A DNA stretch of 64,000 nucleotides from an uncultured Rhodospirillaceae bacterium (GCA_964652235.1 CAZZDK010000009.1:6261-70260), one strand, 5' to 3'; counted from the first letter of the stretch, positions 2,896 to 30,311 are shown. Notes: generated from the letters alone by a model not told the origin. Program-made: numbers and translations.

Positions 2896-5800
2896 ATGCT
2901 GTTTTCACAGGATAAAGACAAAGAGAACAAAGCCCCCAAACGTTCGCTTTGGGGCACGTTGTTCAATCCCCGCTTCGGCGACGACATCAAGCCGCTCGCC
3001 GAGACCTCTCGTATGTTCGCCAATCTCGTCGCGATGGTTTTGGCCACCAACAATCTGTTTCCCAAAGATCACCCGGCGCTGCGCGACGCGACGGTGCGCC
3101 TTTCTCTCAGCGAGGTAATCGCCATCGCCTGGAGCCGCCTGTCTTTCACGAAAGAAGGCCTGCCCCAAATCGTCCTCTTCGCCGCCGTTATCGGCTGCAT
3201 GGTCTTTTCGGCGCTGTTCATTATCACGCTTATCTTCTCGTTCTTCATCACCCCCGCCCACGCAGCGGAAAGTTCGAGTATGTTTACGCCCGCCGATGGT
3301 GGCGCTGGCGATTGGGCTCAAAACTGGCTTAATTATATTTTTTCTGGTGAGCCTTATTCCTTGAATCTGGAGGAGTATTCCAATGTGCCAAAATCATGCG
3401 TTTGGCAATCAGCCCTTGGGAAAGCCCTTGGCTTCTACAGCGGAGGGATACTTGTCCTGGCCGGAATTATTCTCCTTTATCACTTATTTTCCATGGTTGC
3501 TGAAACGGCCCATTCCGGAAAGGTTATGGGCAATGCAAACCAAATCTGGGCGCCTATACGGCTTGTCGTGGCGATCGGTCTTTTGGTCCCCATTGGAAGC
3601 GCCTCAGCTGGAACCAATTGTTCTATATCGGGCCTGAATACCGGCCAATATCTCGTTGTGCAAGTGGCTAAGTGGGGTTCTGGACTAGCAAGCAATGTGT
3701 GGAAAGTCTTCACGGAAGCCGTTGGCGAAACAACGCCCCCTAGCGATTGTCAGAAGGGGAGCGGCTCTCCTTCCTGCATACAAGTCCCGGCCTCTGTAAA
3801 GAAACCAGCTGTCGGGATTATAAGCAATTATTTTTGCGCAGCTATGTATAATCGTTATATGTCTGAGCTTGGCCTCAAAGATTATTTTATCGAAGCGGCT
3901 ACTGATGTTTCTGCTGGGGATCATTTTTTTGGTCCCAAGTCTACTTTGGGACCAAACGGTTTTAATTTTACCGCAAGAAAATTGTGCGGGGGCTATTCCC
4001 TCCCCGCTCTCCCGGCAGACAGCCTCTATAGGTCAGTTTATGAGACCCAAAGGGCCGCGCTTGGTTCTTATCTCACCAAAGCCAAAGAAAAAGTTAATAC
4101 CTATGTTACCTATTATGTACCCGGCGGTGTCGTTCCTCACGACATCAACGAAGAAATAAAGGAATTGACGGAATCCTTTCGAGAGGACGCTGATAATAGA
4201 GTCCAATCGATCCTTCCTGCCGCCGACAAGCAGGCAAAAGAAATGGATCCTATGTTATCCAACAAGCTGGTAAAAGATGGTGGCTGGCTTATGGCGGGCG
4301 CATGGTTTAACTCTATTGCGAAAAATCAAGCAGATCGCTCGGCCAGTGTACAAAATGCCATGCCCCTGGTTTTAGAAAAGAGTTTGACGACACTAGTGGA
4401 GGAAAAATTTTCTTTCTCCAGAGAAAAAAAGAAGGGAATCTCTTCTCCAGAAGAGCGCACTTTAGCCGCGGTCAGAAAATTTGAGGAAGATATAGGTTTC
4501 TTAGGAGACGCTCCTGTTAAAGCCTCAACGGAAAAAACTGCCGAACAGGGAAAAAAATCTGACGATTCTGCGTGGGATACTCTCAAGCAGATAATAAAAT
4601 CTGCTAACCCGGCTCAGGGGCTCGTTAATCTTCTGGTAAAAATGTTAACTGACTATAATATCAGCAACACAAAGGGATTGGCCCTCAGATTCAACTCTTT
4701 TGCCAATCCTTTGGCTGAGGTGGCAGCCTTTGGCCACAGTCTTGTTAATCTATCTCTTGATCTTTTCGGTTTGGCTTTGGCTGCCTATGCGGTGGGTCTT
4801 TTGCTTTCAGGCGCTGGCCTCGTCGGGGGGCTTCTGGCAACGATAGCTTTGCCCTTCTTTACGGCCGGGGCCTTTCTTGGTTTTTTGCTTCCTCTTGTCC
4901 CCTTCTTCCGTTTCTTTTTTGGTGCCCTTACTTGGATTATAGGTCTTTTTGAGGCTGTCGTTGCCGTCCCCCTTTGGGCCCTCGCTCATATGAACCCGGA
5001 AGGAGCCGGTCTTCCAGGGGGAATGGCTAAAAGTGGCTATTTCTTTATCCTTAATACTATGCTCCGCCCAGTTTTGATGATTTTCGGATTAATTGCAGGC
5101 TATCTCCTCTTTCTTGTTTCCCTGAGTTTTCTCAACACCGCGTTCTCTATGGCGGCGCAAACAACGGGGAGCTTAAATGGGTCGACGCGCAACCTAGCGA
5201 CCCTTGTTTTTACCTTCATGTATTGTGGTACGGTTTACACTCTTGGCAACCAATGCTTTAAATCCATAGGCATGTTCCCCGAACACGCTTTGCGGTGGCT
5301 CGGCACAAGCGGTCACCAAGAGAAAATGGGCGACCCGTCCATGTCCCAACAGACAATGGGCGCTGTTGGAAGTTATGTTTTGGGACAAGGGATTGGTCAA
5401 CTCGGGGGAGCTGCTAAACAACTAGGGGACAACTTAAGGGGGAAAAAGAAGGCCGCCGCCGACCAAAGAGCCAGCGCCCTCGCGGATCAACGCCGTGATG
5501 GGATCGCCCGACAACGCCATGACGATAATATGCGCGCGCAGGGCATGAGGATGGTCACCGACAATGAAGGCAACCCTGTCTTGGGCGATGGCGGTGCGCC
5601 TACATACGAACGCGACCCCAATGCCATCCAGCAGGCTTCGGGCGGGGAGCAGATTCAGTCGGGCGGTGACGGCGGCGGACAGTCCATCGCTTCCAGCAGC
5701 CCTCCCCCGCCGCCTATACCGAAGGGCTTCCAGAAATCGGAAAGCAGCGATCTCGTCATTCCCTCGACCCTCGCTACGGAACAGAAGACCGCGAAAAACG

Positions 5801-5925
5801 AGCAACCGGCCGTGAAGGAGGAAGCCGCCGCCGCAGAGGCGAAGAGAAAGAACGACGAGCAAAGCGCAGAGAAGTCGCTTGCCGATATGCGGGCCGAACA
5901 CGCGCGGAAAAGCTGGGAGACTTAA
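2896..5925 (+). CDS. Large polytopic membrane protein with Cys-containing periplasmic domain and Gly/Pro/charged C-terminal tail; candidate DotA/TraY-like (or VirB6/TrbL-like) T4SS inner-membrane component
   Basis: 1009 aa. N-terminal TM segments, a ~380-aa AT-richer central soluble domain with paired cysteines, a cluster of 5-6 TM helices (res ~600-800), then a GGDGGG / PPPPPIP / KE-rich tail. Its length is close to what I recall for Legionella DotA (~1048 aa), and T4BSS-like genes lie 15 kb away. Confidence 0.55.
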   Translation: MLFSQDKDKENKAPKRSLWGTLFNPRFGDDIKPLAETSRMFANLVAMVLATNNLFPKDHPALRDATVRLSLSEVIAIAWSRLSFTKEGLPQIVLFAAVIGCMVFSALFIITLIFSFFITPAHAAESSSMFTPADGGAGDWAQNWLNYIFSGEPYSLNLEEYSNVPKSCVWQSALGKALGFYSGGILVLAGIILLYHLFSMVAETAHSGKVMGNANQIWAPIRLVVAIGLLVPIGSASAGTNCSISGLNTGQYLVVQVAKWGSGLASNVWKVFTEAVGETTPPSDCQKGSGSPSCIQVPASVKKPAVGIISNYFCAAMYNRYMSELGLKDYFIEAATDVSAGDHFFGPKSTLGPNGFNFTARKLCGGYSLPALPADSLYRSVYETQRAALGSYLTKAKEKVNTYVTYYVPGGVVPHDINEEIKELTESFREDADNRVQSILPAADKQAKEMDPMLSNKLVKDGGWLMAGAWFNSIAKNQADRSASVQNAMPLVLEKSLTTLVEEKFSFSREKKKGISSPEERTLAAVRKFEEDIGFLGDAPVKASTEKTAEQGKKSDDSAWDTLKQIIKSANPAQGLVNLLVKMLTDYNISNTKGLALRFNSFANPLAEVAAFGHSLVNLSLDLFGLALAAYAVGLLLSGAGLVGGLLATIALPFFTAGAFLGFLLPLVPFFRFFFGALTWIIGLFEAVVAVPLWALAHMNPEGAGLPGGMAKSGYFFILNTMLRPVLMIFGLIAGYLLFLVSLSFLNTAFSMAAQTTGSLNGSTRNLATLVFTFMYCGTVYTLGNQCFKSIGMFPEHALRWLGTSGHQEKMGDPSMSQQTMGAVGSYVLGQGIGQLGGAAKQLGDNLRGKKKAAADQRASALADQRRDGIARQRHDDNMRAQGMRMVTDNEGNPVLGDGGAPTYERDPNAIQQASGGEQIQSGGDGGGQSIASSSPPPPPIPKGFQKSESSDLVIPSTLATEQKTAKNEQPAVKEEAAAAEAKRKNDEQSAEKSLADMRAEHARKSWET

Positions 5926-6267: not shown

Positions 6268-7326
6268 ATGCTCGTTTTAGGTTTGGAAAGCAGCTGCGAC
6301 GAAACGGCGGTGGGGATCGTAGAGGATTCCGCCGAGCTTGAATCCTCTTCCGGGGGACGCGTTTTGGCGAACGTCGTGGCCGCGCAGCTTGAGGAGCATC
6401 GGCCCTATGGCGGCGTGGTGCCGGAAATCGCGGCGCGCGCGCATCTCGATAAAATCGACGCGCTGGTGCGCGAAGCGCTTGCCCAGGCGAAAGTGGCCCT
6501 GCGGGACCTCGATGGCATCGCGGCGACCTGCGGCCCCGGCCTAATCGGCGGCGTGATGGTCGGCGCGATGACGGGCAAGGCTCTCTCCGCCGTCACGGGC
6601 AAACCCTTTATCGCCGTCAATCACCTCGAAGCTCACGCCCTCACCGCGCGACTTTCGCATGATGTTTCTTTTCCTTTTCTGCTGTTGCTTGTCTCCGGCG
6701 GTCATTGTCAGCTTGTCTGGGTGGAGGGCGTAGGCCGCTATCGCAAACTGGGAGGCACGCTCGACGACGCGGTAGGTGAATGTTTCGACAAAAGCGCCAA
6801 GCTTTTAGGTTTGGGCTATCCGGGCGGTCCGCTGATCGAGCGTGCCGCCGCGCAGGGAAACCCGAAGGCCTTCGCTCTGCCGCGCCCCATGATGGGCCGC
6901 GCAGGCTGCGATTTTTCTTTCTCCGGCCTGAAAACCGCCGTCCGGCAAGCCGTCTCTGAAGCGCCAAAGCCCCTAACCGAAACCTTCGTCGCCGATATGG
7001 CGGCTTCGTTACAGGAAGCCGTGGCCGCGATTTTAACGGACCGCACGCGCCAGGCGCTTGCGATTCTAAGGGAAGAAAGAGCAGAACCGACCGCGCTGGT
7101 CGTGGGCGGCGGCGTGGCGGCCAATCGAGCGATCCGCGAAGCCTTGACGGCGCTGGGCGCGGAATGGGGCGCGCGGTTTCTGGCCCCGCCGCCGGGACTT
7201 TGCACCGATAACGGCGTCATGATAGCCTGGGCCGGACTTGAAAGATTGAGACTCGGCCTTCAAGACGGTTTGGCTTTCGCGGCCAGACCGAGATGGCCGC
7301 TTGAAGGATTGAAGGAAACCGGATGA
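6268..7326 (+). CDS. tsaD: tRNA N6-threonylcarbamoyladenosine synthase TsaD
   Basis: N-terminal [12 protein letters not shown] and HLEAHAL metal-binding motif. Length 352 aa. Confidence 0.9.
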
Positions 7327-8330
7327 ATCTTTTTCAGCGTTTTGGGATCATCGGTGGCGGCGCGTGGGGCACGGCGCTCGGCGCGGCGCTGGTCCGCGCG
7401 GGCCGCGACGTTGTTCTTTGGGCGCGGGAAAAAGAAGTCGCCGCCTCGGTCAACGAGCGCCATGAAAACGAAATCTTTCTGCCGGGCGTCAAGCTTGACC
7501 CGAAACTAAGGGCGACGAACGAGCTGCGCGATTTGGTTTTTTGCGACGTCTGGCTTCTTGTCGCGCCGGTGCAGCATACGCGCCTTGTCTGCGCGCAAAT
7601 CGACGCCGTGGGAGCGGATAAAAACATCCCCATCGTCCTTTGCTCCAAGGGCATTGAAATGGGGACGCTTAAGCTTCCTTCCTCCATCGTGCAGGAATCG
7701 CTGCCGGGCCATCCGCTCGCGGTTTTGTCGGGGCCGAGTTTCGCCGCCGAAGTCGCCCGCGATCTGCCCACCGCGCTTACGCTCGCCTGCGCGAACGAAG
7801 AAACGGGCCTGGCGCTTGTTCGGTCGGTCGGCTCGCGCACCTTTCGCCCTTACGCCAGCGACGACGTGATCGGCACGCAAGTCGGGGGCGCGATCAAAAA
7901 CGTTCTGGCCGTCGCGACGGGAATCGCCGCCGGATGCGGCCTTGGCGAAAACGCCCGCGCCGCGCTGATCACGCGAGGACTGGCTGAAATGATGCGCCTC
8001 GGCTCGGCGCTGGGGGCCAGGCCGGAAACGCTTATGGGTCTTTCGGGCCTGGGCGATCTCACCCTCACCTGCGCCAGCACGCAATCGCGCAATATGTCTT
8101 TAGGGTTAGCGTTGGGACAAGGCCGCAAGCTGGCCGATATTCTGGCCGAACGCAAAAGCGTGGCCGAAGGCGTTCCGACCTCCGAAGCGGCGGCGGCTCT
8201 GGCCCGCGCCTGCCGGGTGGATATGCCGATCGTCGCCGCGGTGGACGCCGTTCTGAACCACGGCGCGCGCGTGGAAGACACCATCGCGGCGCTTTTGGCG
8301 AGGCCCTTTAAGGCGGAAAGGAATTCGTAA
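7323..8330 (+). CDS. gpsA: NAD(P)H-dependent glycerol-3-phosphate dehydrogenase GpsA
   Basis: [13 protein letters not shown] Rossmann motif. Overlaps tsaD stop by 4 nt. Confidence 0.9.
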
Positions 8331-8390
8331 CCGGAATCAAACCTTTCGCTAACCATAAAACAAGCTTTTCGTAACGTTTTCCAAAAAGAT

Positions 8391-8420
8391 GAAGGCCCGC
8401 TTTCGCGGGCCTTCTCTTTT
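8391..8420. terminator. Bidirectional rho-independent terminator (10-bp GC stem, tttc loop, T-runs on both strands) between gpsA and convergent small gene
   Basis: gaaggcccgc-tttc-gcgggccttc followed by tctttt; preceded by aaaaag on the other strand. Confidence 0.6.
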
Positions 8421-8463
8421 GCTGCAAGGGGTAGGCAGCGAAACGTTGAGAAGAGAGCCGGTC

Positions 8464-8703
8464 TTAGACGGCGCGTTGATGCGCCGGAAGCGTCATGCCC
8501 ACCTCGTGGACGGCGCGGACGATGCGCTCGCCGATGCTGCCCACGCGGGCGGCGGCGGCGGCGTAGCTGCCGGTCGAGCGACGGATGGCGGCCAGCGTCT
8601 TGTCGAGCGCAACCAGGTTCGTCTGGTTGGTCATCGCAATGAGGCGCTCCAACGTCTCATCGGCTGACGGGGCAAGATACTGAAACTCGAATTCCTGTGC
8701 CAT
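8464..8703 (-). CDS. Hypothetical small protein (79 aa)
   Basis: Clean ORF ending at the bidirectional terminator. No recognisable motif. Confidence 0.4.
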   Translation of the reverse strand: MAQEFEFQYLAPSADETLERLIAMTNQTNLVALDKTLAAIRRSTGSYAAAAARVGSIGERIVRAVHEVGMTLPAHQRAV

Positions 8704-9010
8704 GGTGCTTCTCTTCGGTTCGGGTTGGCCGCTTGAAGATTTTTGAAGCTTTCTTCCCGCGGTCTTTCTTCGTTTTTCCTTGCGAATCGCTTGGTTTTTT
8801 CTCGCAAAGATCGACTTTCGATACTTCCAACTTACACAGGATTGCTGAATTCCAAGTTAATACGGCGCGTTTTTTTTCGAAGAAAAACGCCTTTTTTTGG
8901 CTCAAACCTTAGGATTTTCGAAGGGTTCATTGAGAAACTATTAACCACGACTATGGTAGAATAGCCTATCCTGAGAAAAGGGACGGCTCAAAAACATAAG
9001 GAAAAAGGCC

Positions 9011-9421
9011 ATGTCCAGCGTTTTTTCGACAGCGATTTCAGGCATGAACGCCGCCGTGGCGCAAATGCTGAACGCGGCGACAAACATAGTTAACGCTTCG
9101 TCAACAGGAAAATTGCCTGCCGCCGAAAACGAAAAAGCCACGTCTTTCGCGCCGCAAGACGTCGTTATCGCTTCGAACAACGAAGGCGATCATCATCTAG
9201 GCGTGACGGCGACGCGCGTGCCGCGCGAGCCTTCTTACTATCCGATGTATGATCCCCAAGCGCCGGACGCGAACGAGCAGGGCCTCGTCGCCGCGCCGAA
9301 CGTCGATATTGCTTCCGAAATCCTGGACGTGATGACGGCAAAGATCGCCTACGAAGCCAGCGCCAAGGTCATCGCGGCCGAAAAGAAAACGCAGGAAACC
9401 CTGCTCGACACGTTAACGTAA
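9011..9421 (+). CDS. flgC: Flagellar basal-body rod protein family (FlgC-like), orphan copy
   Basis: N-terminal rod motif SGMNAAVAQMLNAATNIVNASSTG and C-terminal PNVDIASEILDVMTAKIAYEASAKVI...TLLDTL match FlgB/FlgC family ends. 136 aa. No other flagellar genes in the window. Confidence 0.65.
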   Translation: MSSVFSTAISGMNAAVAQMLNAATNIVNASSTGKLPAAENEKATSFAPQDVVIASNNEGDHHLGVTATRVPREPSYYPMYDPQAPDANEQGLVAAPNVDIASEILDVMTAKIAYEASAKVIAAEKKTQETLLDTLT

Positions 9422-9491
9422 AAAGCTTCCCCGAAACCAAAAATCCCGCTTCCTGCCGAGGCCGCGTTGAGGTAAAAGAAGGGCTTCCCGG

Positions 9492-11372
9492 TTGGAGCCT
9501 TTCATGCCTTTGTCTCGCGCCGCCAAAATCCTCGTTTTTCTGTGCCTGGTGACGGCCTCCGGCGCGGCGCAGGCGCAGCTCGCGCCGACGCCGCAAAAAG
9601 CGCCGCGCACCCCCGTGCGCCAACAACAGCTCGCCATCGCCAAACAGCCTCCCCTTCCCGCCTCGCGCACGCTGACGGGCGAGGCCGTGATTCTCGACCC
9701 CGAACGCCTTAGAATCGACAGAATTGAGATGCGCCTGTTCGGCGTCGTGCCGCCGCTTTTGTCCGCCGCCTTCGGGCCGCAGGCGCGCGCCGCGCTGGAC
9801 CAACTGGCCAAGGAACCTGTGACGTGTCGTCTGCGCGACAGGGACCGGGACGGACGTCTTTTCGCTTCCTGCCAAAACGAAAGCGGCCTCGATTTCGGCG
9901 TCGAACTTTTGCGCCGGGGCCTGGCCGTCACCGCGCGCGGTTCGCTGCACGGCACAGAGCTCGCCTTGACCTACGTCGCGGCGGAAGAGGCGGCCAAGTC
10001 GCAGCGTCTCGGCCTTTGGTCGGTGCGCGCGCCCGAAGCCGCTTCCAAGAGCAGCATCGAGATGGCCGCGCAGAAAGCGGTTTCTCCCGCCGCGCCTGCT
10101 GTCGGCGAAACGCCTGCGCAACCGGAAGCCGCGCCACAGGAAACGAAAACCGCCGCGCCCGAACAGCCGTCGCCTGCCCCGCCCGAAACGGCCGTTGCCG
10201 TTTCCAGCGCGGATAAACCGGCGACAACGGCGGGCGAATCCCTTCTCTTCGTCCAGGACGAAGCTGGGGCTGCGCCCGAATTGGTTCTGCCGGAAACGGG
10301 TTTCGTCGAAAGGTACCAGCTTTTGCTCACGGGCCTCTCTTTTCTGCTGGCGGCTCTTATCGGCGCGAGCGGATTTGCCTGGGTCCGGCGACAGGAAAAA
10401 AGGGATTCGCTTCGGGCCATCGCCGCCGCGCTGCGCGGAGAAATCATGGCCATGCGGTCGGTTTGCCTGGCGCGTCTTTCCAAGATGGAAAAGGACGGCG
10501 ACGAAAAGACGACAAGCTGGCCGCGTTTGCGCTCTACGATTTTCCAGGCCTATGTCGGCGAATTAGGCCGTCTCGGCGCGGACCTGGCGAGGCAGATCGC
10601 CTCCATCTACGGCCAGTCCAGCGATTACGCTTCCTACTACGTCGGAGCGGGGGCGCGGCCTGAGGCGGCCTCAAAAAAACAGGCGCTTCAAACGCTTGTA
10701 CACCATATTGAAGATGTTGTGCCCCGCCTGGCGGGAATCGAGCGTGACGGCTTCGCGCCGAGGCCCCCTTCCGCTTCCCTTGCCCCCTCTCTTCTTGCGC
10801 GGGTTGCGCGACAGGGCGATGCGATTAAGTCCCTTCTAAAACCGTCTCTGCTGCCCCATGGCTGGCCCGGACGTCCCGCGCCGTTGCCGCCGCCGAAGGC
10901 GGCAGAGGCGCCGCAAGAAAGACCGTCCGCGAAAGAAAAAGCGGAAGAATCGCGCCCGCCGGAAAGCCCGGAGACAAAAGAAGAGCCTGTCGCGGAAAAA
11001 ACGGCGGAGGAAAGCCCGAAAGAGGCTCCGCCGCCGACAGACCAACCGACGATCAAACAGGCGCGGCCCGGCAAAAAAGCGGCTCCCGCGTCGAAACGGG
11101 CCGCTAAAACCGAAAAGACGCGCCAGCCGCCACAGAAAAGGTACGCTTCGCTCAACCCCGAAAAAATTGCCGAGGTCACCGCCCGGCTTGGTCGAATGAA
11201 AGACTTTCTGGCCGGACAATGGGACCGCCTAAAACCCGAAACGAAAGACTTTTATAAAGACCTGCTGCCGGAATACGCTCACCTGACGGAAGAGGAGCTG
11301 GAGGCGCTGGCTTATTTCGAGGAAAATCCCTACCGGGAAGAGGAGGAAGAGGCCCCCCGGAAAACGGGTTAA
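9492..11372 (+). CDS. Signal-peptide/TM-anchored protein with staphylococcal-nuclease (SNase/thermonuclease)-like periplasmic domain, Pro/Ala/Glu-rich linker and lysine/glutamate-rich cytoplasmic tail
   Basis: Signal peptide ILVFLCLVTASGAAQAQ. SNase-like block (RLFGVVPP ... AEEAAKSQRLGLWS). Single TM LLLTGLSFLLAALIGASGFAWV mid-protein. Low-complexity KE/P-rich C-terminus. Confidence 0.6.
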   Translation: MEPFMPLSRAAKILVFLCLVTASGAAQAQLAPTPQKAPRTPVRQQQLAIAKQPPLPASRTLTGEAVILDPERLRIDRIEMRLFGVVPPLLSAAFGPQARAALDQLAKEPVTCRLRDRDRDGRLFASCQNESGLDFGVELLRRGLAVTARGSLHGTELALTYVAAEEAAKSQRLGLWSVRAPEAASKSSIEMAAQKAVSPAAPAVGETPAQPEAAPQETKTAAPEQPSPAPPETAVAVSSADKPATTAGESLLFVQDEAGAAPELVLPETGFVERYQLLLTGLSFLLAALIGASGFAWVRRQEKRDSLRAIAAALRGEIMAMRSVCLARLSKMEKDGDEKTTSWPRLRSTIFQAYVGELGRLGADLARQIASIYGQSSDYASYYVGAGARPEAASKKQALQTLVHHIEDVVPRLAGIERDGFAPRPPSASLAPSLLARVARQGDAIKSLLKPSLLPHGWPGRPAPLPPPKAAEAPQERPSAKEKAEESRPPESPETKEEPVAEKTAEESPKEAPPPTDQPTIKQARPGKKAAPASKRAAKTEKTRQPPQKRYASLNPEKIAEVTARLGRMKDFLAGQWDRLKPETKDFYKDLLPEYAHLTEEELEALAYFEENPYREEEEEAPRKTG

Positions 11373-11415
11373 CCAAGCGCGAAAACGGCGCGTTTTTCAA
11401 AGCCCTGAAAAATTG

Positions 11416-11429
11416 TTTCGTTAACGAAA
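11416..11429. repeat. Perfect 14-bp palindrome TTTCGTTAACGAAA in AT-rich intergenic region (possible operator; parS-half-like TGTTTCG)
   Basis: Seen directly. Reverse complement is identical. Confidence 0.5.
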
Positions 11430-11529
11430 ATGTCTAGCATTTTATTCATATTTTTTTAGACTTTTTGGCGAATAATAGAGGTATTCGAGGCGAAAGTTTG
11501 TCACTTTATTTCTAAAGGGGAAATACGCC

Positions 11530-11781
11530 ATGCTTTCGAAAATGACGACCTCCGTTTTGATAGATTTGGTGGAAAATAAGCTCGCCATGCTGCAGATCGA
11601 CGGACGCGAGGATTTGCGCGAAGTCCTGACCCTTCAACATTGCTTGAGCGAATTGCAGACCGCGCTGGGCATGGGCGGCGAAAAGGAAGCCTGCGCCATT
11701 CCGCACAGAGGTCGCCACCGCAAGTTGTCGGCGCTGATGGAAGACGCGCACATACCGCTCGCCCAAAGGCAGAGCGCGTAG
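11530..11781 (+). CDS. Hypothetical small protein (83 aa)
   Basis: ORF preceded by AT-rich region. No motif. Confidence 0.35.
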   Translation: MLSKMTTSVLIDLVENKLAMLQIDGREDLREVLTLQHCLSELQTALGMGGEKEACAIPHRGRHRKLSALMEDAHIPLAQRQSA

Positions 11782-11836
11782 GTCCAAGGATTGCCCCGCG
11801 GTTAGTCCGTCGCGGCGGCGATGAGGCCTGGCCGTT

Positions 11837-13291
11837 TTACCCCTTAAGCTTTTCCTTAAGCATATCGTTCAGCATGGCCGGGTTCGCTTTTCCCGCCATC
11901 GCCTTCATGGCCTGCCCGACAAAGAATCCGAACAGCTTGTCCTTGCCCGCGCGATATTCCGCGACCTTGTCCGCATTGGCCTGAAGAATCTTGTCGATGG
12001 CCTCGCCGATGGCGCCCGTATCCGTCACCTGGCGCAAGCCTTTTTCTTCGACGATCTGCGCGGCGGCTTTGCCGGTTTCGATCATTTCCGCGAAAACGTC
12101 TTTGGCGATACGGCCCGAAATCGTGTTGTCGCCGATGAGAGCGATCAGGCCTCCCAGATTTTCCGGGCTGACGGGACTGTCTTCAATCGTCCTGCCCAAA
12201 CGGTTCAGCGCGCCGAAAAGCTCGCTCGTCACCCAGTTCGCGGCCAGCTTGCCGTCGCGGCCCGTGGCTACTTTCTCGAAATAATCCGCGTTCGCTTTTT
12301 CCGCGACGAGAACCGACGCGTCGTAATCGGACAGGCCGTATTGGGAAATAAAGCGCGCCTTTTTTTCGTCCGGCAATTCAGGCAGCGTCTTTTTGATTTC
12401 CTCCACCCAGGCCGCGTCTAAAACAAGCGGCAACAGGTCGGGGTCGGGGAAATAGCGGTAATCGTGCGCCTCTTCCTTAGACCGCATGGAGCGCGTGACC
12501 CCGCGTCCGGTGTCCCACAGGCGCGTTTCCTGATGGACGCTGCCGCCGGATTCCAGAACTTCCACCTGCCGTTCGGCCTCGTATTCGATGGCCTGCATGA
12601 CAAAGCGGATGGAGTTGACGTTCTTGATCTCGCAGCGCGTGCCGAGCTTGCTCTCGCCCTTGCGGCGCATGGAAAGATTCACGTCGCAGCGCATGGACCC
12701 TTCTTCCATGTTGTCGTCGCAGGTGCCGAGATAACGCAGGATCGCGCGGAGCTTTTTGAGGTAGGCCGCCGCTTCCTCGCCTGAGCGCAGATCCGGCTCG
12801 GACACGATTTCCATCAGCGCGACGCCTGAACGATTCAAATCGACGAAGGTCTTGTCGGGACTTTGGTCGTGCAAGCTCTTGCCCGCGTCCATTTCCAAAT
12901 GCAGCCGCGTAATGCCGACGGTCCGCGACTTGCCGCCTTCAAGGTCGAGCGTAATCTCGCCCTTGCCGACGATGGGCTGCTTGAACTGGCTGATCTGATA
13001 ACCGGCGGGCAGATCGGCGTAGAAATAATTCTTGCGGTCGAACACCGAGCGCAGATTAATCTGCGCCTTAAGGCCGAGGCCCGTACGAACGGCCTGCTCG
13101 ACGCATTTCTTGTTAATGACAGGCAGCATTCCGGGGAAAGCCGCGTCAACGGGAGAAACGTTGGCGTTCGGCGCGCCGCCGAACGCGGCGCTCGCGCCCG
13201 AAAACAACTTGGCCTTGGAGGTCACCTGCGCGTGGACCTCAAGCCCGATTACCATTTCCCATTCGCCCGTCTGGCCTTGAATGTATGACAT
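11837..13291 (-). CDS. gatB: Asp-tRNA(Asn)/Glu-tRNA(Gln) amidotransferase subunit B GatB (start trimmed to MSYIQ..., ATG at 13291)
   Basis: [13 protein letters not shown], GatB/YqeY C-terminal domain. 484 aa. Confidence 0.9.
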
Positions 13292-13382
13292 TCCGTCTCC
13301 ACCGAATAAGCTTGAAAGCGGGCCTAATGTGAGGCGCGGCGGGGGCATTGTCAAATCTTCTTAAAGCGCTTAGCTTGCCGCT

Positions 13383-19013: not shown

Positions 19014-20048
19014 AATTTTTTTGTCCTCGATCAACTTTTCATAAAGCGCGATCATCTGCTCGGTTACGGCTTTGCGCGTATAGCCTTTCTGATAGGATTC
19101 GCGACCGCCTGCCACCAGCCGTTCGCGCAAAGCCTTGTCGCCGACGGCGCGGGAAAGCGCCTGCGCCAGCGACTTTTCATCGTCGACGGGGACAAGCAGC
19201 CCGTCTTTTTCGTGCGTCACGTGGCCCGCCGGGCCCGCGCTGGCGGCAGCGACAAGAGGAACGCCCGCCGCCCAAGCCTCCAAAATTACTGTCCCGAACG
19301 GCTCATAACGCGAAGGCAAAACGCACACATCCGCCGCGCGCAAAAGCGCGCCGCGATCCGTCCGCCAACCCAGAAACCGCACCCGCGATTCGAGACCGAG
19401 CGTTCGGGTCAGTTCTTCAAGTTCGCCGCGCAAAGGGCCTTCGCCCGCGAGCCAGACATAAAGGTCCGGCAAAAGTTTCGCGGCCTTCAATAGCGTGTCC
19501 AATCCCTTTTTGGGGTGAAGCCGCGAAAGAGCCAACGCGACAGGGGCGTCCGCAGGGGTGTCCAAGCTCGCCCTGTCCACAGGCGATTCGTCCCGCACAT
19601 CGGGAAAAGTCGGAACGTAAAACGCTTTTTCTTCCGCGACGCCGTTTTTGACCATATGCGCCACAATGTCGCGCGTCACGCCGACGAAGTGCGAACAATG
19701 TTTGAACTTGCGCGGATCGTAATAGCCGCCGAACCAACCGAGAACCGGCCCCTTTTTCCAGGCCGGGACAAGGCTGGCGGCGCGGCGCATCCAGCAATGG
19801 ATCAGGTCCGGGCTTTCCCGCTCGATCAGTTTTTTAAGCCGCCATCTTTGCAAAGGCCGGAAAGGAAAGGACAGAACTTCCGGCGCCGTCCGCACCCCCG
19901 ACGCAAGAAGCTCGCCATAGCGCGGCGCGGCGGCGGGATACACCGCGCATTGGTCGATCCCCGCCGCATGGAGGCTGAGCATCATGTCGGTGGCGTAGGT
20001 CTCCGCCCCGCCGAGGCCCTTGCCCGCCATGATGTGAAGAACGCGCAT
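18987..20048 (-). CDS. Glycosyltransferase family 4 (GT-B, WaaG/LpcC-like)
   Basis: EPFGTVILEAWAAGVPLVA (E-x7-E motif), N-terminal GKGLGGAE. Its start overlaps the stop of the upstream coupling-protein gene (TAATG). Confidence 0.8.
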   Translation of the reverse strand: MRVLHIMAGKGLGGAETYATDMMLSLHAAGIDQCAVYPAAAPRYGELLASGVRTAPEVLSFPFRPLQRWRLKKLIERESPDLIHCWMRRAASLVPAWKKGPVLGWFGGYYDPRKFKHCSHFVGVTRDIVAHMVKNGVAEEKAFYVPTFPDVRDESPVDRASLDTPADAPVALALSRLHPKKGLDTLLKAAKLLPDLYVWLAGEGPLRGELEELTRTLGLESRVRFLGWRTDRGALLRAADVCVLPSRYEPFGTVILEAWAAGVPLVAAASAGPAGHVTHEKDGLLVPVDDEKSLAQALSRAVGDKALRERLVAGGRESYQKGYTRKAVTEQMIALYEKLIEDKKIARRLRAYE

Positions 20049-22405
20049 TACTCCGCCGCTTTTTCTTTCCCGCCGAGGCCCTTATTCAGCTTGCCCGCCA
20101 TGTTTTCGACCAGGGCAGCCATGTCGGCGGGAAGCTGGAGCTTGGTCACATCCGGCCCTTCTTCTTCCTCGCGCACGGACGGCACGACGCGCGTATCGAG
20201 ATCGGACGGAACGAAGCCGCGCGGCGCGGACGTCTTGCGCTCGTAAAGCGGCGGCACGTCCAAATCTTCGAAACTGGCGCGCTTTTCTTCCGGTTCTTTG
20301 TCTTCTTCCCACGAAACGGCAAGCGGCTTGGCCACTTTGCCTGTCGCCGCCGTCTGGGACGGCGCTGCCGTTTCGGTTCGCTGGCGCGGTTTTTCTGCCG
20401 GAAGCTTCGCGGCGGCGGCGACCAGCGCCATGCCCTCTTCCATGGAAGAAAGGCCGCCGCCCCGAACAAGCGCCGCCATTTCCATCAGCGCCGAGACCTC
20501 GCCCGAAGGCGCCGCCTCGCCCGCCGCAGCCGCCGTCCAGTCGGGGTCCTTGAGCCGGGCCGCGACTTCGCTGATCGCCCGCTCGCGCGAAACGGTAAGC
20601 GTCGTCGTGGCGGGCACCGGCAAAAGCCGATGGACGCGCAGGGCCGAAACCTTGTCCGGCGCCGCATAGAACATCCGCACGCGCGCGATGAACTCGGCAA
20701 AGAGCATATGCACCTCGCCTTCGCGCTGACCGCGCAACTGGTCGTAGTGCGCGCGAACGCGAACCTGCGTGCCGCCCGTTCCCAGATTGTCGTAGAAAGG
20801 CTTGTTCATGAACAAGCTGGAAATCGTGTCGGTCTTGGCCGCCATGCCGTTCGATTCATAAACGAAGTTATCGCCGACGTGTTCCGAGAAGAATTTCTTC
20901 GTATCGCCCGGGTCCTCGAGCTTGCCGAAAATTTTCAGGTTGCAGTTGGCCAGGATGGATTGAGCCTCCTGCTTGACGCGCTTTTCCATCGACGGCAAGT
21001 CCTGCGCCGCGAAAATAAGAGAGAAGCCGAGCGAACGGGCCTGCGCGGCCATGACGGCCATGCCCTGCGCCGTGTAGTAACCGACTTCGTCAAACACCGT
21101 CATGAAGGAGGAGGAAGATCGCGTCTGTTTGCTGCCGATGGCGTTTTCCCAGCTTCCCTCCACCGTGTTGCCGAGCGTCGCGCCCATCATGCCTTTCAGG
21201 CTGGCGGCCACGATTTTGCCGAGGTTGGCGGCTTCGTCGCCGGATTTCTCCAGCGAGGGGATCAGGCCGACCAGAATACGCCGGTTCAAAACCGTGTCCA
21301 AAACGTCCACGTCCGCAAGCTGCGCCTTGAAGATGTAGCCGTATTCGTCGCCGAGCGATTGCAGCGAGCGCGTGAACTGCATGGACAGATAACCGTGCTG
21401 TTGCCGCGCGACTTGCAGATCGTACATGGGCTGATCGGGCGCGGGCGGACGCTCGTTGCCTTCGTCGTCGAAGGCCGCGTCGATATAGCCCGGCAGCGTG
21501 TTCAGGTAGCCTTGCAACGCCTTGATGACGCGTTCCGGCAGCGTCGCGTCGCGCGACAGGCGAATGATGGCAGGAAGCTCGATATATTCGCGCAAAACGC
21601 CGACGTCGAGCAAAAGGCCGCCCTTGTCGCGCTTCCAGGTCAAGGCGGGCATGAGGGCGCCGAGCAAAGCGACGGCGCGTTCTTTCCACATCGCGTTGTC
21701 GCCGCCCGCGTCAGGCATCAGGTTCGTCACCATGTTGGTGAGATAGGAAGCCGAGCCGTTCGAAAACGGGTTCATCGTGTTCGAGACCGCGCCGTTGTCC
21801 GAGTTCGCAGTCATGTAGTTCAAAACCAAAAGGTCATCGTCGCGCCCGAAGCGGCGCGCCAGCGCGAATAGAGACGCCCACAGATCCGTGTCGGCCTTGC
21901 CGTCCACATAGACGAAGCCCGACCCCCAGGTCAGGGCATTGGTCACAATGGCTTTCAGTCCTTCCGTTTTGCCGGACCCTGTGGTTCCGATAAAAAGAAT
22001 ATGCGTGCGGGCGTCGGTGTTGGTCAGCCAAATCTCGCGCCCCATGTCGGGGTGGCCCGCCTCGTCCAGATTGCCCAGATACAAAATGCCCTCGGACTTG
22101 CCCGGCCCCGTCCTGCCCGGCGCTGGGTTATGGGGGTCCGGCAACGGCGCCGCGTATTTCGGCATCTTGAACGGCAGCTCGATGGGCTGCTTGAAAAACC
22201 AACGAGCATAAAGAACGAGCAGAAACAAAACCAGATCGGAAAGAAGCCCGGCTTCCGGCAGGGCGAAAACCAAGACTCCGACGCCGAGCGTGGCGGCGCA
22301 GAAAGGTTCCGTCTGGCTCCAGAAATCCTTGATGCGCACGGAGGCCGGCCGCGCGTCGCGCAGCAAGTCGCGAAGATTCAGCGCGTGTTTCTTAAGAATG
22401 GTCAT
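20048..22405 (-). CDS. dotL: Type IV secretion coupling ATPase, DotL/IcmO (TrbC of IncI)-like
   Basis: 785 aa. Two N-terminal TM helices, Walker A FIGTTGSGKTEGLK, long acidic/Ala-rich C-terminal extension. The size is about what I recall for DotL (~783 aa). It is adjacent to DotM-like and DotO-like genes. Strong SD AAGGAGGG. Confidence 0.6.
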   Translation of the reverse strand: MTILKKHALNLRDLLRDARPASVRIKDFWSQTEPFCAATLGVGVLVFALPEAGLLSDLVLFLLVLYARWFFKQPIELPFKMPKYAAPLPDPHNPAPGRTGPGKSEGILYLGNLDEAGHPDMGREIWLTNTDARTHILFIGTTGSGKTEGLKAIVTNALTWGSGFVYVDGKADTDLWASLFALARRFGRDDDLLVLNYMTANSDNGAVSNTMNPFSNGSASYLTNMVTNLMPDAGGDNAMWKERAVALLGALMPALTWKRDKGGLLLDVGVLREYIELPAIIRLSRDATLPERVIKALQGYLNTLPGYIDAAFDDEGNERPPAPDQPMYDLQVARQQHGYLSMQFTRSLQSLGDEYGYIFKAQLADVDVLDTVLNRRILVGLIPSLEKSGDEAANLGKIVAASLKGMMGATLGNTVEGSWENAIGSKQTRSSSSFMTVFDEVGYYTAQGMAVMAAQARSLGFSLIFAAQDLPSMEKRVKQEAQSILANCNLKIFGKLEDPGDTKKFFSEHVGDNFVYESNGMAAKTDTISSLFMNKPFYDNLGTGGTQVRVRAHYDQLRGQREGEVHMLFAEFIARVRMFYAAPDKVSALRVHRLLPVPATTTLTVSRERAISEVAARLKDPDWTAAAAGEAAPSGEVSALMEMAALVRGGGLSSMEEGMALVAAAAKLPAEKPRQRTETAAPSQTAATGKVAKPLAVSWEEDKEPEEKRASFEDLDVPPLYERKTSAPRGFVPSDLDTRVVPSVREEEEGPDVTKLQLPADMAALVENMAGKLNKGLGGKEKAAE

Positions 22406-27381: not shown

Positions 27382-27596
27382 GGACGAAAGACCTCCCGGC
27401 GCGAAGGGGGAGACGCAGGGACGGAGGAGAGACCGATTGGAGCCAAACGCCGAAACGCCATGCGGGACACATACCTTGCAAACGGACAACGACAAACGTC
27501 TGCCCAAGGAAGCCTCGGACATCCTTGCTGTTTTAACGGCAAGATTATGAACAATTAACTAACGCAAAAGATTTAGAAAAGCCCTTTCGTTTTCCC

Positions 27597-29189
27597 TTGA
27601 CGCTTTTGCGGGCTTCCCGCTTACTAATTCCCGTTTTCCGGGAAAAGGGGCAAATTTTGGTCGCACGTATAGGCACTTTTGCTTTTGAGGGCACGTCCGT
27701 CCTGCCGATCGACGTTCAGGTTCAAATCTCCTCCGGTCTCGTCGTCTTCAATGTCGTCGGATTGCCGGATAAGGCCGTCGCCGAAAGCCGCGAGCGCGTG
27801 CGCGGCGCCCTTCACGCCCTGGGGCTGTCTCTTCCGGCCAAAAGGATCACCGTTAACCTGGCGCCCGCCGACGTTCTTAAAGAAGGCAGTCACTTTGACC
27901 TTCCCATCGCGCTGGCGATTTTGGCGGCGATGGAGGTCTTGCCGAAAGAAGAAATCCTTCTCTATGCGGCTTTGGGAGAATTGGGGCTGGACGGCGCCCT
28001 TGCGCCCGTCGCGGGCACCTTGCCCGCCGCTGTTTCGGCAAACGAACGAAACTGCGGCCTTATTTGTCCGCTGGCGAACGGGGGCGAGGCCGTTTGGGCG
28101 AGCGAGTCTCTGGACGTGCTGGCCGCTCCTTCTCTTCTTAGCCTTATTAATCACTTCAAGGGGATTCAGGTCCTGCCCCGCCCGATGCCCCGCCTTCAGG
28201 AACAAACCGGTCCGGCCTTTGCCGACCTGCGCGACATCAAGGGCCAGGAAACGGCCAAACGCGCGTTGGAGGTCGTGGCGGCGGGAGGGCACAACCTGCT
28301 GATGATCGGCCCGCCCGGCGCAGGCAAGAGTATGCTGGCCGCGCGGCTTCCCGGCCTTTTGCCGCCCCTTGCCCCGGACGAAGCGCTTGAGGTCTCGATG
28401 ATCCATTCTCTGGCGGGCCTTTTAGAGGACGGCAAACTTTTGCGTCAAAGACCGTTCCGCGACCCCCACCATTCGGCCACGCTCGCCGCTCTGATCGGCG
28501 GAGGCACGCGCGCCAAACCCGGCGAGGTTTCCCTGGCCCATAACGGCGTCTTGTTTTTGGACGAATTGCCGGAGTTCCAGCGCGCGACGCTGGAAGCCCT
28601 GCGCCAGCCGCTCGAGACCGGTCGCGCCGTTGTCTCTCGCGCCAATCACCATGTTTCCTATCCGGCGCGCATTCAGCTTGTCGCGGCCATGAATCCCTGC
28701 CGGTGCGGCCATTTGGCCGATCCTTCCCTCGCCTGCGGGCGGGCGCCCAAATGCGCCGCCGATTATCAATCCCGCATTTCGGGCCCTCTGTTCGACCGTA
28801 TTGATTGCCATGTGGACGTGCCCGCCGTCAGCGCAAGTGATCTTTCCCTCCCGCCGCCAGCCGAAGATTCCGCCGCCGTCGCGGCCCGCGTGGCGCGTGC
28901 GCGCGCCGTTCAGACCGAACGTTACCGCGCCTTGGCGAAGACGAGCGAAAAACCCGTCCGCACCAACGCCGAAGCGGACGGCGAGCTTTTGGAAGCCGTC
29001 GCCCCTCTGGGCGAAACGGCGCGATCCCTTTTGTCGCAAGCGGCGGAAAAAATGAAATTGTCGGCCCGCGGCTATCACCGCGTTTTGCGCGTCGCGCGCA
29101 CGCTTGCCGATCTGGCGGAAAGCGAAACGGTGGAAAAACTTCACGTGGCCGAAGCGTTAAGCTACCGCCGCCTTTCCTTCGGGCGGTGA
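27597..29189 (+). CDS. comM: YifB/ComM-family Mg-chelatase-like AAA+ ATPase
   Basis: N-terminal ChlI-like domain ([11 protein letters not shown]), Walker [15 protein letters not shown]-terminal ComM domain. True start may be an internal TTG/GTG. Confidence 0.85.
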
Positions 29190-30134
29190 CGATTCGCCGC
29201 TCATTTGCGCGGCGGCGGCTCGGATTTCCTCGGTCGTCACGAGCATATGCGAAATGCCCGCCGTGACGGCGCTGGTCGCCGAGGTCGTCTCCTGCGCGCT
29301 GCGGGCTATTTCCTGCGTCGCCGCGTTTTCCTGATCCAACGCCGATTTGATGGCGACGGTAATCGCGTTGATTTGTCCGATCGTTTCTTCGATTCCCTTG
29401 ACCTGATCTTTCACGTTTTGCGAGGCGACGCGCACATCGTTGATCTGTTTTTCGATCTGCTCCGTCGCCTCGGCGGTCTGTCGGGCCAGCGACTTGACTT
29501 CTCCCGCGACGACGGAAAAGCCCTTGCCGTGTTCGCCCGCCCGCGCGGCCTCGATGGTGGCGTTGAGGGCAAGCAGATTGGTGCGCTCGGCGATCATGCG
29601 TATAAGGCCCACGATCGAAGCGATTTCGTCGCTGCGGGCCGCCAGGGTCGCGACGGCTTCGTCGGCGCCTTTAGCGTTCTTTACCGCGCCGCCCGCGATG
29701 CTCGTCGCCTCGTCCGCTTGGCGACCGATTTCGTGAATGGCGCTGTTCATTTCCTCAATGGCGCTGGCGATGCTGGTCGCGCTTTCCGTCGCGCGCGCCG
29801 CCGAAGAGGTGGAGGCTGTGGCGCGGCGCTGATGGTCTTCCGCGAGAGCTTGAAGTTTTTTGGCCTGCGCCGCTAGCTTTTGCCAGACGTCTTCACGGTC
29901 CTGAGGGCCTGTCTTATCCGGCTCTTTCGTTTCTTCGGGCCGGACGGCGGGTTCGCGGCCCAAAGGCCTCGATAGGACCGCGCTCACCGCCAGGCTGCCT
30001 AAAACGAGAAAGGCCGCCAAAAAAGCGACGGCCCTGCCGTCCGGCGCGACGCGCCAGGCCCAAAGGCCCAAGGGCGCAACAGCCCCCAGCAGAAAAGAAG
30101 CGGTGATCGCCTTTCTTATCGAAGGATCCGTCAT
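29157..30134 (-). CDS. Methyl-accepting chemotaxis protein (short, two N-terminal TM, no ligand-binding domain)
   Basis: MCP signalling-domain motifs [32 protein letters not shown]. Confidence 0.8.
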
Positions 30135-30311
30135 GTTTTTTCTCGCAAGCGGTTTGCGAAACTATGGCAACCTAAGATTTAATTTTCTTCTAACAAAGCG
30201 CAAAAACAAATGGTTACGCCTGTGTTCCGCCGCTGCCTCCTCTCCATTAATCCAGTCTTAAAGATCGGTTCGATAAAGTGGGGTCGGCTCAAATAGACAA
30301 AGGGTCTTCGC

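Follow-up and report, generated by a model that had tools for sequence, protein, structure and literature searches.

A divergent gene pair for a chemoreceptor-tip-like hairpin protein and an orphan FlgC-like protein in uncultured Alphaproteobacteria

Organisation of the locus

The 64,000-nucleotide stretch of DNA analysed here (referred to as the window) comes from an uncultured Rhodospirillaceae bacterium (GCA_964652235.1, CAZZDK010000009.1:6261-70260), and the subject of this study is a small group of genes that lies in it between gpsA and gatB. An earlier note on this DNA had drawn attention to an orphan flagellar-rod-like gene, regarded there as part of an AT-flanked islet together with a gene for a nuclease-like membrane protein, and had set the left boundary of the islet at position 8704. 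That position directly abuts the start codon of a gene that had been overlooked (8464-8703, minus strand), which encodes a protein of 79 amino acids (aa), here called p79, predicted to form a helical hairpin resembling the tip of a chemoreceptor. It is this gene, rather than the nuclease-like one, that is the true conserved partner of the rod-like gene (9011-9421, plus strand; 136 aa), and the divergent pair is the conserved unit.

The two genes face away from each other across a shared promoter region of 307 bp (8704..9010), the blocks of which can be aligned between loci. The leader of about 300 bp that had been described in front of the rod-like gene is this same stretch, and it is indeed AT-rich (42.7% GC compared to 58.6% for the window). 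Beyond p79 the map of open reading frames (ORFs) shows tsaD (6268-7326, plus strand) and gpsA (7323-8330, plus strand; Pfam-confirmed), with a G+C-rich palindrome (8391..8414) between the 3' ends of gpsA and the p79 gene that is a candidate bidirectional intrinsic terminator (a stem of 10 bp, 8 of them GC pairs, with T-runs on both strands, according to a terminator scan). On the other side, the rod-like gene is followed by a gene for a staphylococcal-nuclease-like (SNase-like) secreted protein with a single transmembrane (TM) segment (9504..11372, plus strand; 622 aa, or 626 aa if translation starts at TTG 9492) and by gatB (11837-13354, minus strand; ORF map, Pfam-confirmed).

Conservation of the pair

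In the contigs that were fetched for comparison (loci on these carry L numbers), all close relatives have a gene for 79-80 aa on the opposite strand, 240-310 bp upstream of the rod-like gene. The outer contexts of the pair differ from locus to locus: an acetyltransferase gene, cobS and dnaJ-like genes, cheY, cheZ and fliM in L002, the rpoN-hpf-ptsN region in L005, tsaD-gpsA on one side and pgi on the other in L008, and tsaD-gpsA, the SNase-like gene and then fliM-fliL-flgF-flgG-flgA in L010. Flagellar or che genes occur within 10 kb of the pair in L002-L004, L010 and L026, and a gene for a methyl-accepting chemotaxis protein (MCP) is present in the same 64-kb window as the pair.

A scan for p79 with one genome per species returned at least 33 loci, all in metagenome-assembled genomes (MAGs) of uncultured Alphaproteobacteria; counts of species-representative genomes such as these are samples and lower bounds, not censuses. 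Among the matches listed, a rod-family gene occupies the divergent position beside p79 in 24 of the 32 loci that could be evaluated. A metagenome scan, for which a subset of 32 p79 sequences was used (the alignment of 139 sequences being too diverse), yielded 56 further p79 loci, and the pair is present in 41 of the approximately 51 evaluable ones. In total the pair is found in at least 75 loci, which represent 64 distinct intergenic regions. The MAGs that carry it are labelled 'Rhodospirillaceae', 'Alphaproteobacteria' or 'Bdellovibrionales bacterium'; the last label may reflect a Micavibrio-like placement, Micavibrio being placed under Bdellovibrionales by NCBI.

The two proteins evolve at very different rates. 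Orthologues of p79 are 82-99% identical where the rod-like partners are 56-71% identical, and over 60 distinct pairs the mean pairwise identity is 77% for p79 versus 43% for the rod-like protein, with p79 having the higher value in every comparison.

The p79 protein

The family to which p79 belongs comprises 263 word-index matches and 151 representatives at 50% identity (exhaustive profile search), and nearly all of the best 150 of these 151 representatives are 50-130 aa long. Every homologue with a name in its source is called 'hypothetical' among the matches listed, and no model of Pfam, NCBIfam, PHROG or PADLOC matches p79. With the 139-sequence alignment, AlphaFold2 predicts an antiparallel hairpin (predicted local distance difference test score, pLDDT, of 88.8) made of helices 14-42 and 47-69 with a turn at residues 43-46; this model was used instead of one from a shallower alignment (51 sequences, at least 73% identical to the query), which has a pLDDT of 69.8.

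It is the comparison of profiles that connects this hairpin to chemoreceptors. When the p79 profile was run against all PDB sequences, the top 13 were chemoreceptor chains (best E 4.7e-4), with Tsr (1qu7, 3zx6, 8c5v), a Thermotoga chemoreceptor (2ch7, 3ja6) and receptor chains of 85-90 aa (3ur1_C, 4jpb_B) among the matches, and the alignments with mappable coordinates (those involving Tsr and the MCP of the window) fall on the cytoplasmic hairpin tip. The window MCP (29157..30134, minus strand; 325 aa) has MCPsignal as its sole Pfam match, and its hairpin tip corresponds to residues 173-233; hhalign aligns the p79 profile to these residues at 83.9% (E 7.7e-6), and to the cytoplasmic domain of Tsr, for which a sequence not drawn from a database served as reference, at 88% (E 3.1e-6). 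Controls, i.e. reversed and shuffled MCPs, GreA, Rop and the rod-like family, remain at or below 0.2% (E 0.31-0.83). In addition, the Pfam MCPsignal model matches five of the 139 members of the p79 family at E<=0.01, the best at 1.7e-5. The pattern common to p79 and MCPs, as judged by eye, reads …MTNQTNLVALDKTLAAIRRS--TGSYAAAAARVGSIGERIVRA… on the p79 side, and the hallmark QTNL(L/V)AL…(F/Y)A…ER occurs on both arms in p79 as well as in MCP tips, the matches being centred on the turn.

The chemoreceptor hairpin tip contacts CheA-P5 and CheW and mediates the packing of trimers of dimers. Compared with the tip of the MCP signalling domain (PF00015; approximately residues 360-420 in Tsr), p79 has the same predicted antiparallel two-helix hairpin with the motif on both arms, it has the length of the crystallised T. 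maritima receptor tip fragments (the 85-90-aa chains 3ur1_C and 4jpb_B), and it has the extreme sequence conservation of receptor tips. It differs from MCPs in being a natural stand-alone protein of 79 aa that remains below the Pfam threshold, in its turn, which is shorter by two residues, and in what it lacks: besides the sensing and HAMP regions, the arms of the MCP four-helix bundle and the methylation and flexible-bundle regions are missing from a protein that in total consists of 79 aa, with helices 14-42 and 47-69 only. By these alignments p79 would correspond to the protein-interaction region of an MCP and to nothing else, having no ligand-binding, HAMP or methylation regions, and it appears either to derive from the chemoreceptor hairpin tip or to mimic it closely. 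Receptors recruit and control CheA and CheW through their tip, and a conserved copy of it that occurs free is therefore a candidate modulator, scaffold or inhibitor of signalling.

The similarity to MCPs could also be convergent, with p79 being a generic antiparallel coiled-coil hairpin that is unrelated to chemoreceptors and acts, for example, on the RNA polymerase secondary channel (in the manner of Gre or HelD) or as a small regulator. The best Foldseek match, to the N-terminal hairpin of HelD (probability up to 0.75, E>=1.6), would fit such a protein, as would the sequence similarity between p79 and MCPs, which is weak in absolute terms, and the phage-like contexts of some family members. 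The profile matches, on the other hand, are specific to MCP tips, centred on the turn and carry the hallmark pattern on both arms, the GreA, Rop, shuffled and reversed controls do not exceed 0.2%, and Pfam MCPsignal independently matches five family members, which makes a generic hairpin quite unlikely. A two-helix hairpin is in fact so simple and generic a fold that Foldseek can neither confirm nor deny kinship with chemoreceptors.

Two distant members of the p79 family (L051 4986-5201 and L087 1491-1715) lie in dense runs of small ORFs that all point the same way and have phage-type neighbours (a PHROG endonuclease V at E=6.6e-42, phrog_21015, an overlapping N6/N4 DNA methylase and phrog_1081), so that part of the family may be phage-borne. 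No p79 was found by tblastn in GenBank phages or PLSDB plasmids, and a pattern scan of IMG/VR found none apart from one match of 27 residues (L107). For the distant family member P0267, only contigs of less than 1 kb were found.

The rod-like protein

As had been claimed in the earlier note, the flagellar-rod-like gene is real and stands alone: it is an ORF of 136 aa (9011-9421, plus strand), and neither flgB and fliE nor any other flagellar structural gene was found among the window ORFs scanned (most ORFs of at least 150 aa). Of the clear rod motifs that had been reported for both ends of the protein, the C-terminal one stands, Flg_bbr_C matching residues 90-133 with 31.7 bits (gathering threshold 23), whereas the N-terminal one could not be recovered: Flg_bb_rod (PF00460) gives no match at E<=1 for the window protein, the N-terminal helix of which nonetheless aligns to FlgC models. 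In the Bradyrhizobium-type relatives, too, PF00460 is represented only by weak or faint precomputed matches. The FlgC model TIGR01395 aligns end to end at 66.9 bits, i.e. under its equivalog cut-off of 102.1, and the sequence of the solved Salmonella FlgC (7bin_V) is colinear with the rod-like protein over residues 4-126 (E=1.4e-6), the alignment taking in the central '…yePg.PlAd..GyV..PNVD…' stretch. Eight relatives tested against TIGR01395 score 32-74 bits, the seven 136-aa members 58-74 and a form of 109 aa 32; forms of 72 and 98 aa have no NCBIfam match.

Arranged by locus, the rod-like partners of p79 form a nested series of lengths (136, 132, 109, 98, 83 and 72 aa), which is bimodal over the 60 distinct pairs, with 19 at 72 aa, 21 at 136 aa and intermediates besides. 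In the 72-aa forms the N-terminal rod helix (…A.sGl..Av.R…a.NivNASSTGk) is fused directly to the C-terminal helix (NvD..lV…A…Y.AnAavIk…km.k.LLDi), and the central domain is gone. Clustering distributes the reduced forms over at least three distinct groups, some being isolated cases within the full-length group. Given these recurrent deletions of the central domain, which leave as little as 72 aa, selection seems to act on the two terminal rod helices only, and in the clade of the window the constraint on the rod-like protein would thus be confined to these terminal (D0-type) helices. The loss of the central domain in orthologues would also argue against the rod-like protein being a stoichiometric component of the proximal rod. 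In four loci the gene downstream of the shortened rod-like gene (L020 9038-9478, L026 9048-9473, L029 8976-9446 and L044 5751-6182) resembles, by eye, a truncated HprK-type kinase (MLIHA.CV…G.SG.GKSD.ALRLID.GA.LV.DD), the four being 60-65% identical to each other.

The nearest outgroup consists of proteins of 136 aa with 41-44% identity to the window protein, among them those of Bradyrhizobium-labelled MAGs (L006/L007) and of the contigs L103 and L104; proteins of the same length on Azospirillum chromids, i.e. from cultured bacteria (L108, L109), are 42-47% identical to the L006 protein. All of these outgroup orphans lie in non-flagellar contexts, and in two Azospirillum species the orphan FlgC-like gene (L108 4992-5402, L109 4998-5402) is found near genes for a PP2C-type protein phosphatase and tetratricopeptide-repeat (TPR) proteins. 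In RefSeq such orphans from Azospirillum and Bradyrhizobium-type genomes are named 'flagellar basal body rod C-terminal domain-containing protein', and they belong to the same paralogue family of 136 aa: they are 41-47% identical mutually or to the window protein, score 78-99 bits with the family hidden Markov model (HMM) compared to 36-38 for FlgG, and share the C-terminal ending …LLD(T/I)… as well as the non-flagellar contexts. They differ from the window protein in having no p79 partner, no TTGA-N7-TTAA box and other neighbours (PP2C phosphatase and TPR genes in Azospirillum), and no shortened forms were seen among them, unlike in the window clade. Bradyrhizobium diazoefficiens has a canonical flgB-flgC-fliE inside each of its flagellar clusters (PMC6406911), and the Bradyrhizobium-type orphans would therefore be additional paralogues.

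The rod-like protein resembles FlgC (TIGR01395; Salmonella 7bin chain V) in its length class (134-137 aa), in the colinear alignment of N-terminal helix, central domain and C-terminal helix and in its Flg_bbr_C match above threshold. It could therefore be argued that the 136-aa gene is the genuine FlgC of its genome, displaced from flgB and fliE, and that p79 is an unrelated conserved neighbour. The full-length colinear alignment to FlgC models and to a solved FlgC would be accounted for in this way, homologues are named 'FlgC' by some sources, and the relatives must be flagellated, flagellar genes lying 2.5-4 kb away in L010 and L026. Against this stand the sub-cut-off scores (58-74 bits versus 102.1 for every 136-aa member tested), the position away from flgB and fliE, the lack of a Flg_bb_rod match, the pairing with a small non-flagellar gene with which a non-coding architecture is shared, and above all the syntenic orthologues that have shrunk to 72 aa and lack the entire central domain, which are hard to square with a structural rod subunit. 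Furthermore, the nearest outgroup proteins (41-47% identity) are themselves orphans, including those of cultured Azospirillum and of Bradyrhizobium-type genomes, and for the genera of the latter, flgB-flgC-fliE are described as part of the flagellar clusters (PMC6406911). In the fetched loci no second rod-family match was found within approximately 10 kb except FlgF and FlgG (L010, L026), and no canonical flgC, FlgF and FlgG again being the only ones. A displaced FlgC is improbable. By its profile scores the rod-like gene is taken as a member of a family of orphan FlgC-like paralogues and not as a FlgC equivalog; the family is annotated but uncharacterised, and the 'FlgC' calls on these orphans are over-assignments.

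The shared intergenic region

The same intergenic blocks align in all loci with the pair, for which 64 unique versions are available. Two of the blocks resemble the binding site of CtrA, described as TTAA-N7-TTAAC for the full site and TTAACCAT for the half site, with degenerate sites being tolerated (PMC3692519). The box on the p79 side, TGAATTCCAAGTTAA (8846..8860, minus strand), reads TTAA-N7-TTCA towards p79; a T[GT]AA-N7-TTAA box is found on this side in 57 of the 64 unique regions, and loci that have p79 without the rod-like gene retain the p79-side block TTAAC-N6-ATTCAGCAA. The box on the rod side, TTGAGAAACTATTAACCAC (8930..8948, plus strand; core 8930-8944), is TTGA-N7-TTAAC, includes TTAACCAC and lies 63-81 nt upstream of the rod-like ATG in the window. 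Nearly all unique regions (63 of 64) have TTGA-N7-TTAA upstream of the rod-like start, at a distance of 39-132 nt (mostly 71-83).

Downstream of the rod-side box, the conserved block G(G/C)TA(G/T)A(A/T)T contains a candidate -10 element (TAGAAT, 8957..8962, plus strand). The hexamer TTGAGA/TTGACG was considered as an ordinary -35 element and rejected, since it lies 20-21 nt from the -10-like block, a spacing at which the box would straddle the -35 position rather than be an ordinary -35. A sigma-54 promoter was rejected as well, there being no GG-N10-GC (judged by eye). Between the two boxes lies a palindrome of a T-tract and an A-tract (8867..8890) that is terminator-like by scan; its hairpin energy (mean -5.9 versus -4.3 kcal/mol for shuffled sequence) is not clearly beyond that of the shuffles and the structures are inconsistent, so that the RNA hairpin was discarded and the palindrome is treated as an A/T tract. 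The distance between the boxes (8861-8929 in the window; 56 loci) is 59 nt in the main clade with 72-aa forms and for the most part 68-70 nt in the others, and the conserved T-tract of 7-9 nt always begins approximately 10 nt past the first box. This near-fixed spacing, together with the position of the T-tract, suggests helical phasing or a bend in the DNA rather than an RNA structure.

In the whole 64 kb only four TTRA-N7-TTAA sites are present, including the rod-side box, and perfect TTAA-N7-TTAA occurs only twice, namely upstream of the MCP gene (TTAAGACTGGATTAA on the MCP strand; 30247-30261; 113-127 nt before the start) and upstream of dotA (2758-2772; 124-138 nt before it). [quoted passage not shown] Going by the boxes, the pair would be part of a CtrA-type motility regulon, with CtrA as the putative regulator. 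An OmpR-family regulator of 229 aa encoded in the window (32152-32841, minus strand) was considered as CtrA and rejected, as it is not CtrA by NCBIfam; it has a Trans_reg_C match of 61 bits and a degenerate receiver, with no Response_reg match at E<=1e-5.

The SNase-like gene and the islet question

The downstream protein itself is much as it had been described, since a signal-peptide-like N-terminus, an SNase domain, one TM segment, a cytoplasmic domain and a K/E/P-rich tail are all found. Its hydrophobic N-terminus ends in AQA, the linker is P/A/E-rich and the TM segment comprises residues 271-294 (622-aa form). The ATG at 9504 (622 aa, equal to the NCBI protein P0391) is more likely to be the start than the TTG at 9492. 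PF00565 matches residues 91-177 of the 626-aa ORF with 39.9 bits (gathering threshold 21), the domain covering about residues 60-175. The family has 174 matches, the best 120 of which all have E<=1.6e-92, and the architecture (signal peptide, domain, TM segment, cytoplasmic domain and variable charged tail; 470-790 aa) is kept throughout the clade.

Compared with the staphylococcal nuclease (PF00565), the domain is alike in its HMM score and in the conserved R35, and unlike it in being fused to a TM segment, a cytoplasmic domain and a K/E/P-rich tail and in its active site. In an alignment of 60 members with the S. aureus nuclease (a reference sequence not drawn from a database), D40 is replaced by V in 58 of the 60 and T41 by P in all 60, E43 by Q or L, Y113 by R, Y115 by S or T and D21 by E; R35 is kept and R87 is kept in about half. 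With the calcium-binding and catalytic residues replaced, a calcium-dependent nuclease is unlikely, and the domain is probably a relic of the SNase fold rather than a nuclease.

The earlier note had read the locus as an islet in which the rod-like protein is paired with this membrane-anchored protein in a new module. The two genes are on the same strand, 70-82 nt apart, and in the subclade of the window the adjacency has been held (L010, L011, L018, L053-L057), which would fit a horizontally acquired islet with a rod-like protein cooperating with a nuclease. Yet the SNase-like gene adjoins the rod-like gene only in these loci, L001 and the window, and in none of the remaining loci with the pair. 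In two genomes the orthologues are approximately 180-230 kb apart: on contig JAEMOK010000006.1 of GCA_017973835.1 the pair is found at 199-216 kb and the SNase-like gene at 22-36 kb (~180 kb), and on Ga0302251_1000002 at 275-291 kb and 509-523 kb, respectively (~230 kb). In both, the SNase-like gene has unrelated neighbours (cobW, dut and glmM-type genes), so the family is present clade-wide with contexts of its own. The replaced catalytic and calcium-binding residues in the 60 sequences speak against a nuclease partner, too. The SNase-like gene is an unrelated clade-wide gene that is adjacent by chance in the window subclade.

Nor does the composition resemble that of an islet. The GC fractions of the p79, rod-like and SNase-like genes are 0.658, 0.567 and 0.637, which are ordinary values next to the 0.586 of the whole window, and AT-richness is confined to the intergenic stretches on the left (0.427) and the right (0.517). 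Because only the non-coding DNA is AT-rich, the idea of an islet fails; the AT-rich edges are real as intergenic DNA but they are not islet borders, the left one being the conserved divergent promoter region and the right one plain intergenic DNA that separates the SNase-like gene from gatB. By composition (coding GC 0.567-0.658) this is not a genomic island, there is no tRNA in the 64-kb window, and no integrase or mobility gene was found among the window ORFs scanned. Neither is the position between gpsA and gatB a recent one, given that the arrangement beside tsaD-gpsA recurs in many relatives (L008, L010, L015, L016, L020, L029, L046, L048, L053-L056, L070, L073, L075, L081, L084, L089, L097 and L098) and is old; p79 adjoins gpsA even where the rod-like gene is lacking (L040-L043, L058). 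Defence-system and phage-cargo ideas were dropped as well, since PADLOC has no matches for the three genes (p79, rod-like and SNase-like) and PHROGs has only one, a weak match of the SNase-like protein to a family of unknown function. Normal coding GC, an old tsaD-gpsA synteny and these near-empty searches add to the scattered SNase-like orthologues, and an acquired rod-nuclease islet is by now largely refuted and highly improbable. The locus is vertically inherited in a clade of uncultured Alphaproteobacteria.

Other features of the window

Between the SNase-like gene and gatB, in a gap that is moderately AT-rich, the ORF map has a doubtful ORF of 83 aa (11530-11781, plus strand) with a sub-threshold match to TilS_C (18.7 bits, E=0.0011); it is not kept beside gatB in relatives (fetched loci) and could be a chance ORF or the remnant of a gene. 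The close relatives L053-L056 have approximately 2.1 kb of extra DNA between gpsA and the p79 gene that the window lacks. Rfam gave only sub-threshold chance matches over 8300-11900. Elsewhere in the window, genes for type IVB (Dot/Icm) secretion are dispersed among housekeeping genes (2896-5925, plus strand; 20048-22405, 23029-24261 and 24391-27522, minus strand), the set including DotA/TraY (TIGR04346, 266.6 bits), a DotL-like coupling protein and DotM_C, and an adjoining ORF of 1043 aa that has no match in Pfam or NCBIfam.

Proposed role of the pair

The explanation that is favoured here, and that we would give an even chance, is that the pair is a module of co-regulated accessory genes for the chemotaxis and flagellar apparatus, divergently arranged and vertically inherited. 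Through its receptor-tip-like bundle, p79 would dock on CheA/CheW or on receptor trimers, and could in this way tune, nucleate or damp the chemosensory arrays; binding to a highly conserved surface would explain why p79 evolves so slowly. The rod-like protein might act through its D0-type helices as a minor axial or export-gate-binding subunit or, alternatively, itself be a small protein exported by the flagellar type III apparatus. Both genes would be switched on with the motility regulon via the two CtrA-box-like sites.

Several observations weigh against such a module. All carriers of the pair are MAGs of uncultured bacteria, and flagellar genes lie near it in a few loci only. The p79 gene occurs without the rod-like gene in eight genome loci (among the matches listed) and in about ten metagenome loci; conversely, the rod-like orphans of Azospirillum and Bradyrhizobium-type genomes have no p79 beside them. 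In nearly all loci each of the two boxes has one mismatch to the CtrA consensus. As for p79 itself, its similarity to MCPs is remote (E of approximately 1e-3 to 1e-4 for the PDB chains), the turn lacks two residues relative to MCPs (a gap in both hhalign alignments), Pfam MCPsignal (PF00015) does not match the window protein, Foldseek finds nothing significant in the PDB with either model (the best match being the HelD coiled coil), and the two distant members in phage-like arrays show that the family is not exclusive to motility loci. Since the genes are separable both ways, an obligate complex of p79 and the rod-like protein is unlikely; and it is because each gene exists without the other that co-regulated accessory functions are preferred over such a complex.

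A tighter coupling of the two proteins can nevertheless be imagined as a secretion-coupled checkpoint with a logic like that of FlgM and sigma-28, in which the rod-like protein would hold p79 in the cytoplasm (e.g. in a heteromeric helical bundle) until the basal body is competent, after which the flagellar type III apparatus would export the rod-like protein and free p79 for CheA/CheW, thereby tying array activity to flagellar assembly. The close divergent linkage of the genes and the similarity of their boxes would suit a checkpoint, as would the size of the minimal products (72 and 79 aa), each that of a two-helix hairpin, and the limitation of the constraint on the rod-like protein to its terminal helices. 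To our knowledge most Alphaproteobacteria lack FlgM and sigma-28, which also counts for it. The occurrence of either gene without the other in some lineages speaks against it, as does the combination of a fast-evolving partner with a near-frozen p79, which would be unusual in a tight complex, and we consider such a checkpoint unlikely. Only the proposed logic, a small export substrate encoded together with the factor that it restrains, would be shared with FlgM/sigma-28; there is no sequence kinship, and the proposed target is the chemosensory kinase complex instead of a sigma factor.

In the literature, as in Pfam and NCBIfam, no description was found of a natural protein consisting of only a receptor tip, of a rod-family protein consisting of only the helices, or of their pairing, and the two-gene motility-related pair appears to be undescribed. 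That a tip-only receptor and a helices-only rod protein make up a new link from flagellar assembly or export to array activity, with a tip-mimic that phages may have co-opted, is a bolder proposal, which we hold to be unlikely. If it is true, the link could be a secretion-coupled checkpoint, or the two proteins could be dominant-negative decoys that jointly shut down motility and signalling, and phages may use the tip-mimic family to manipulate the chemotaxis of their hosts.

Few bacterial machines have been studied as thoroughly as chemoreceptor arrays and the flagellar rod. The repeated shrinkage of a FlgC paralogue shows which portion of a rod protein is able to carry a function alone, and p79 could serve structural studies of core complexes as a minimal tool that is already at hand. 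Judging by the pairing of the two genes and their common promoter architecture, flagellar assembly and chemotaxis may be linked at the regulatory level in Alphaproteobacteria, and the pair offers a directly testable handle, both on the control of arrays and on the solo roles of the terminal helices of the rod.

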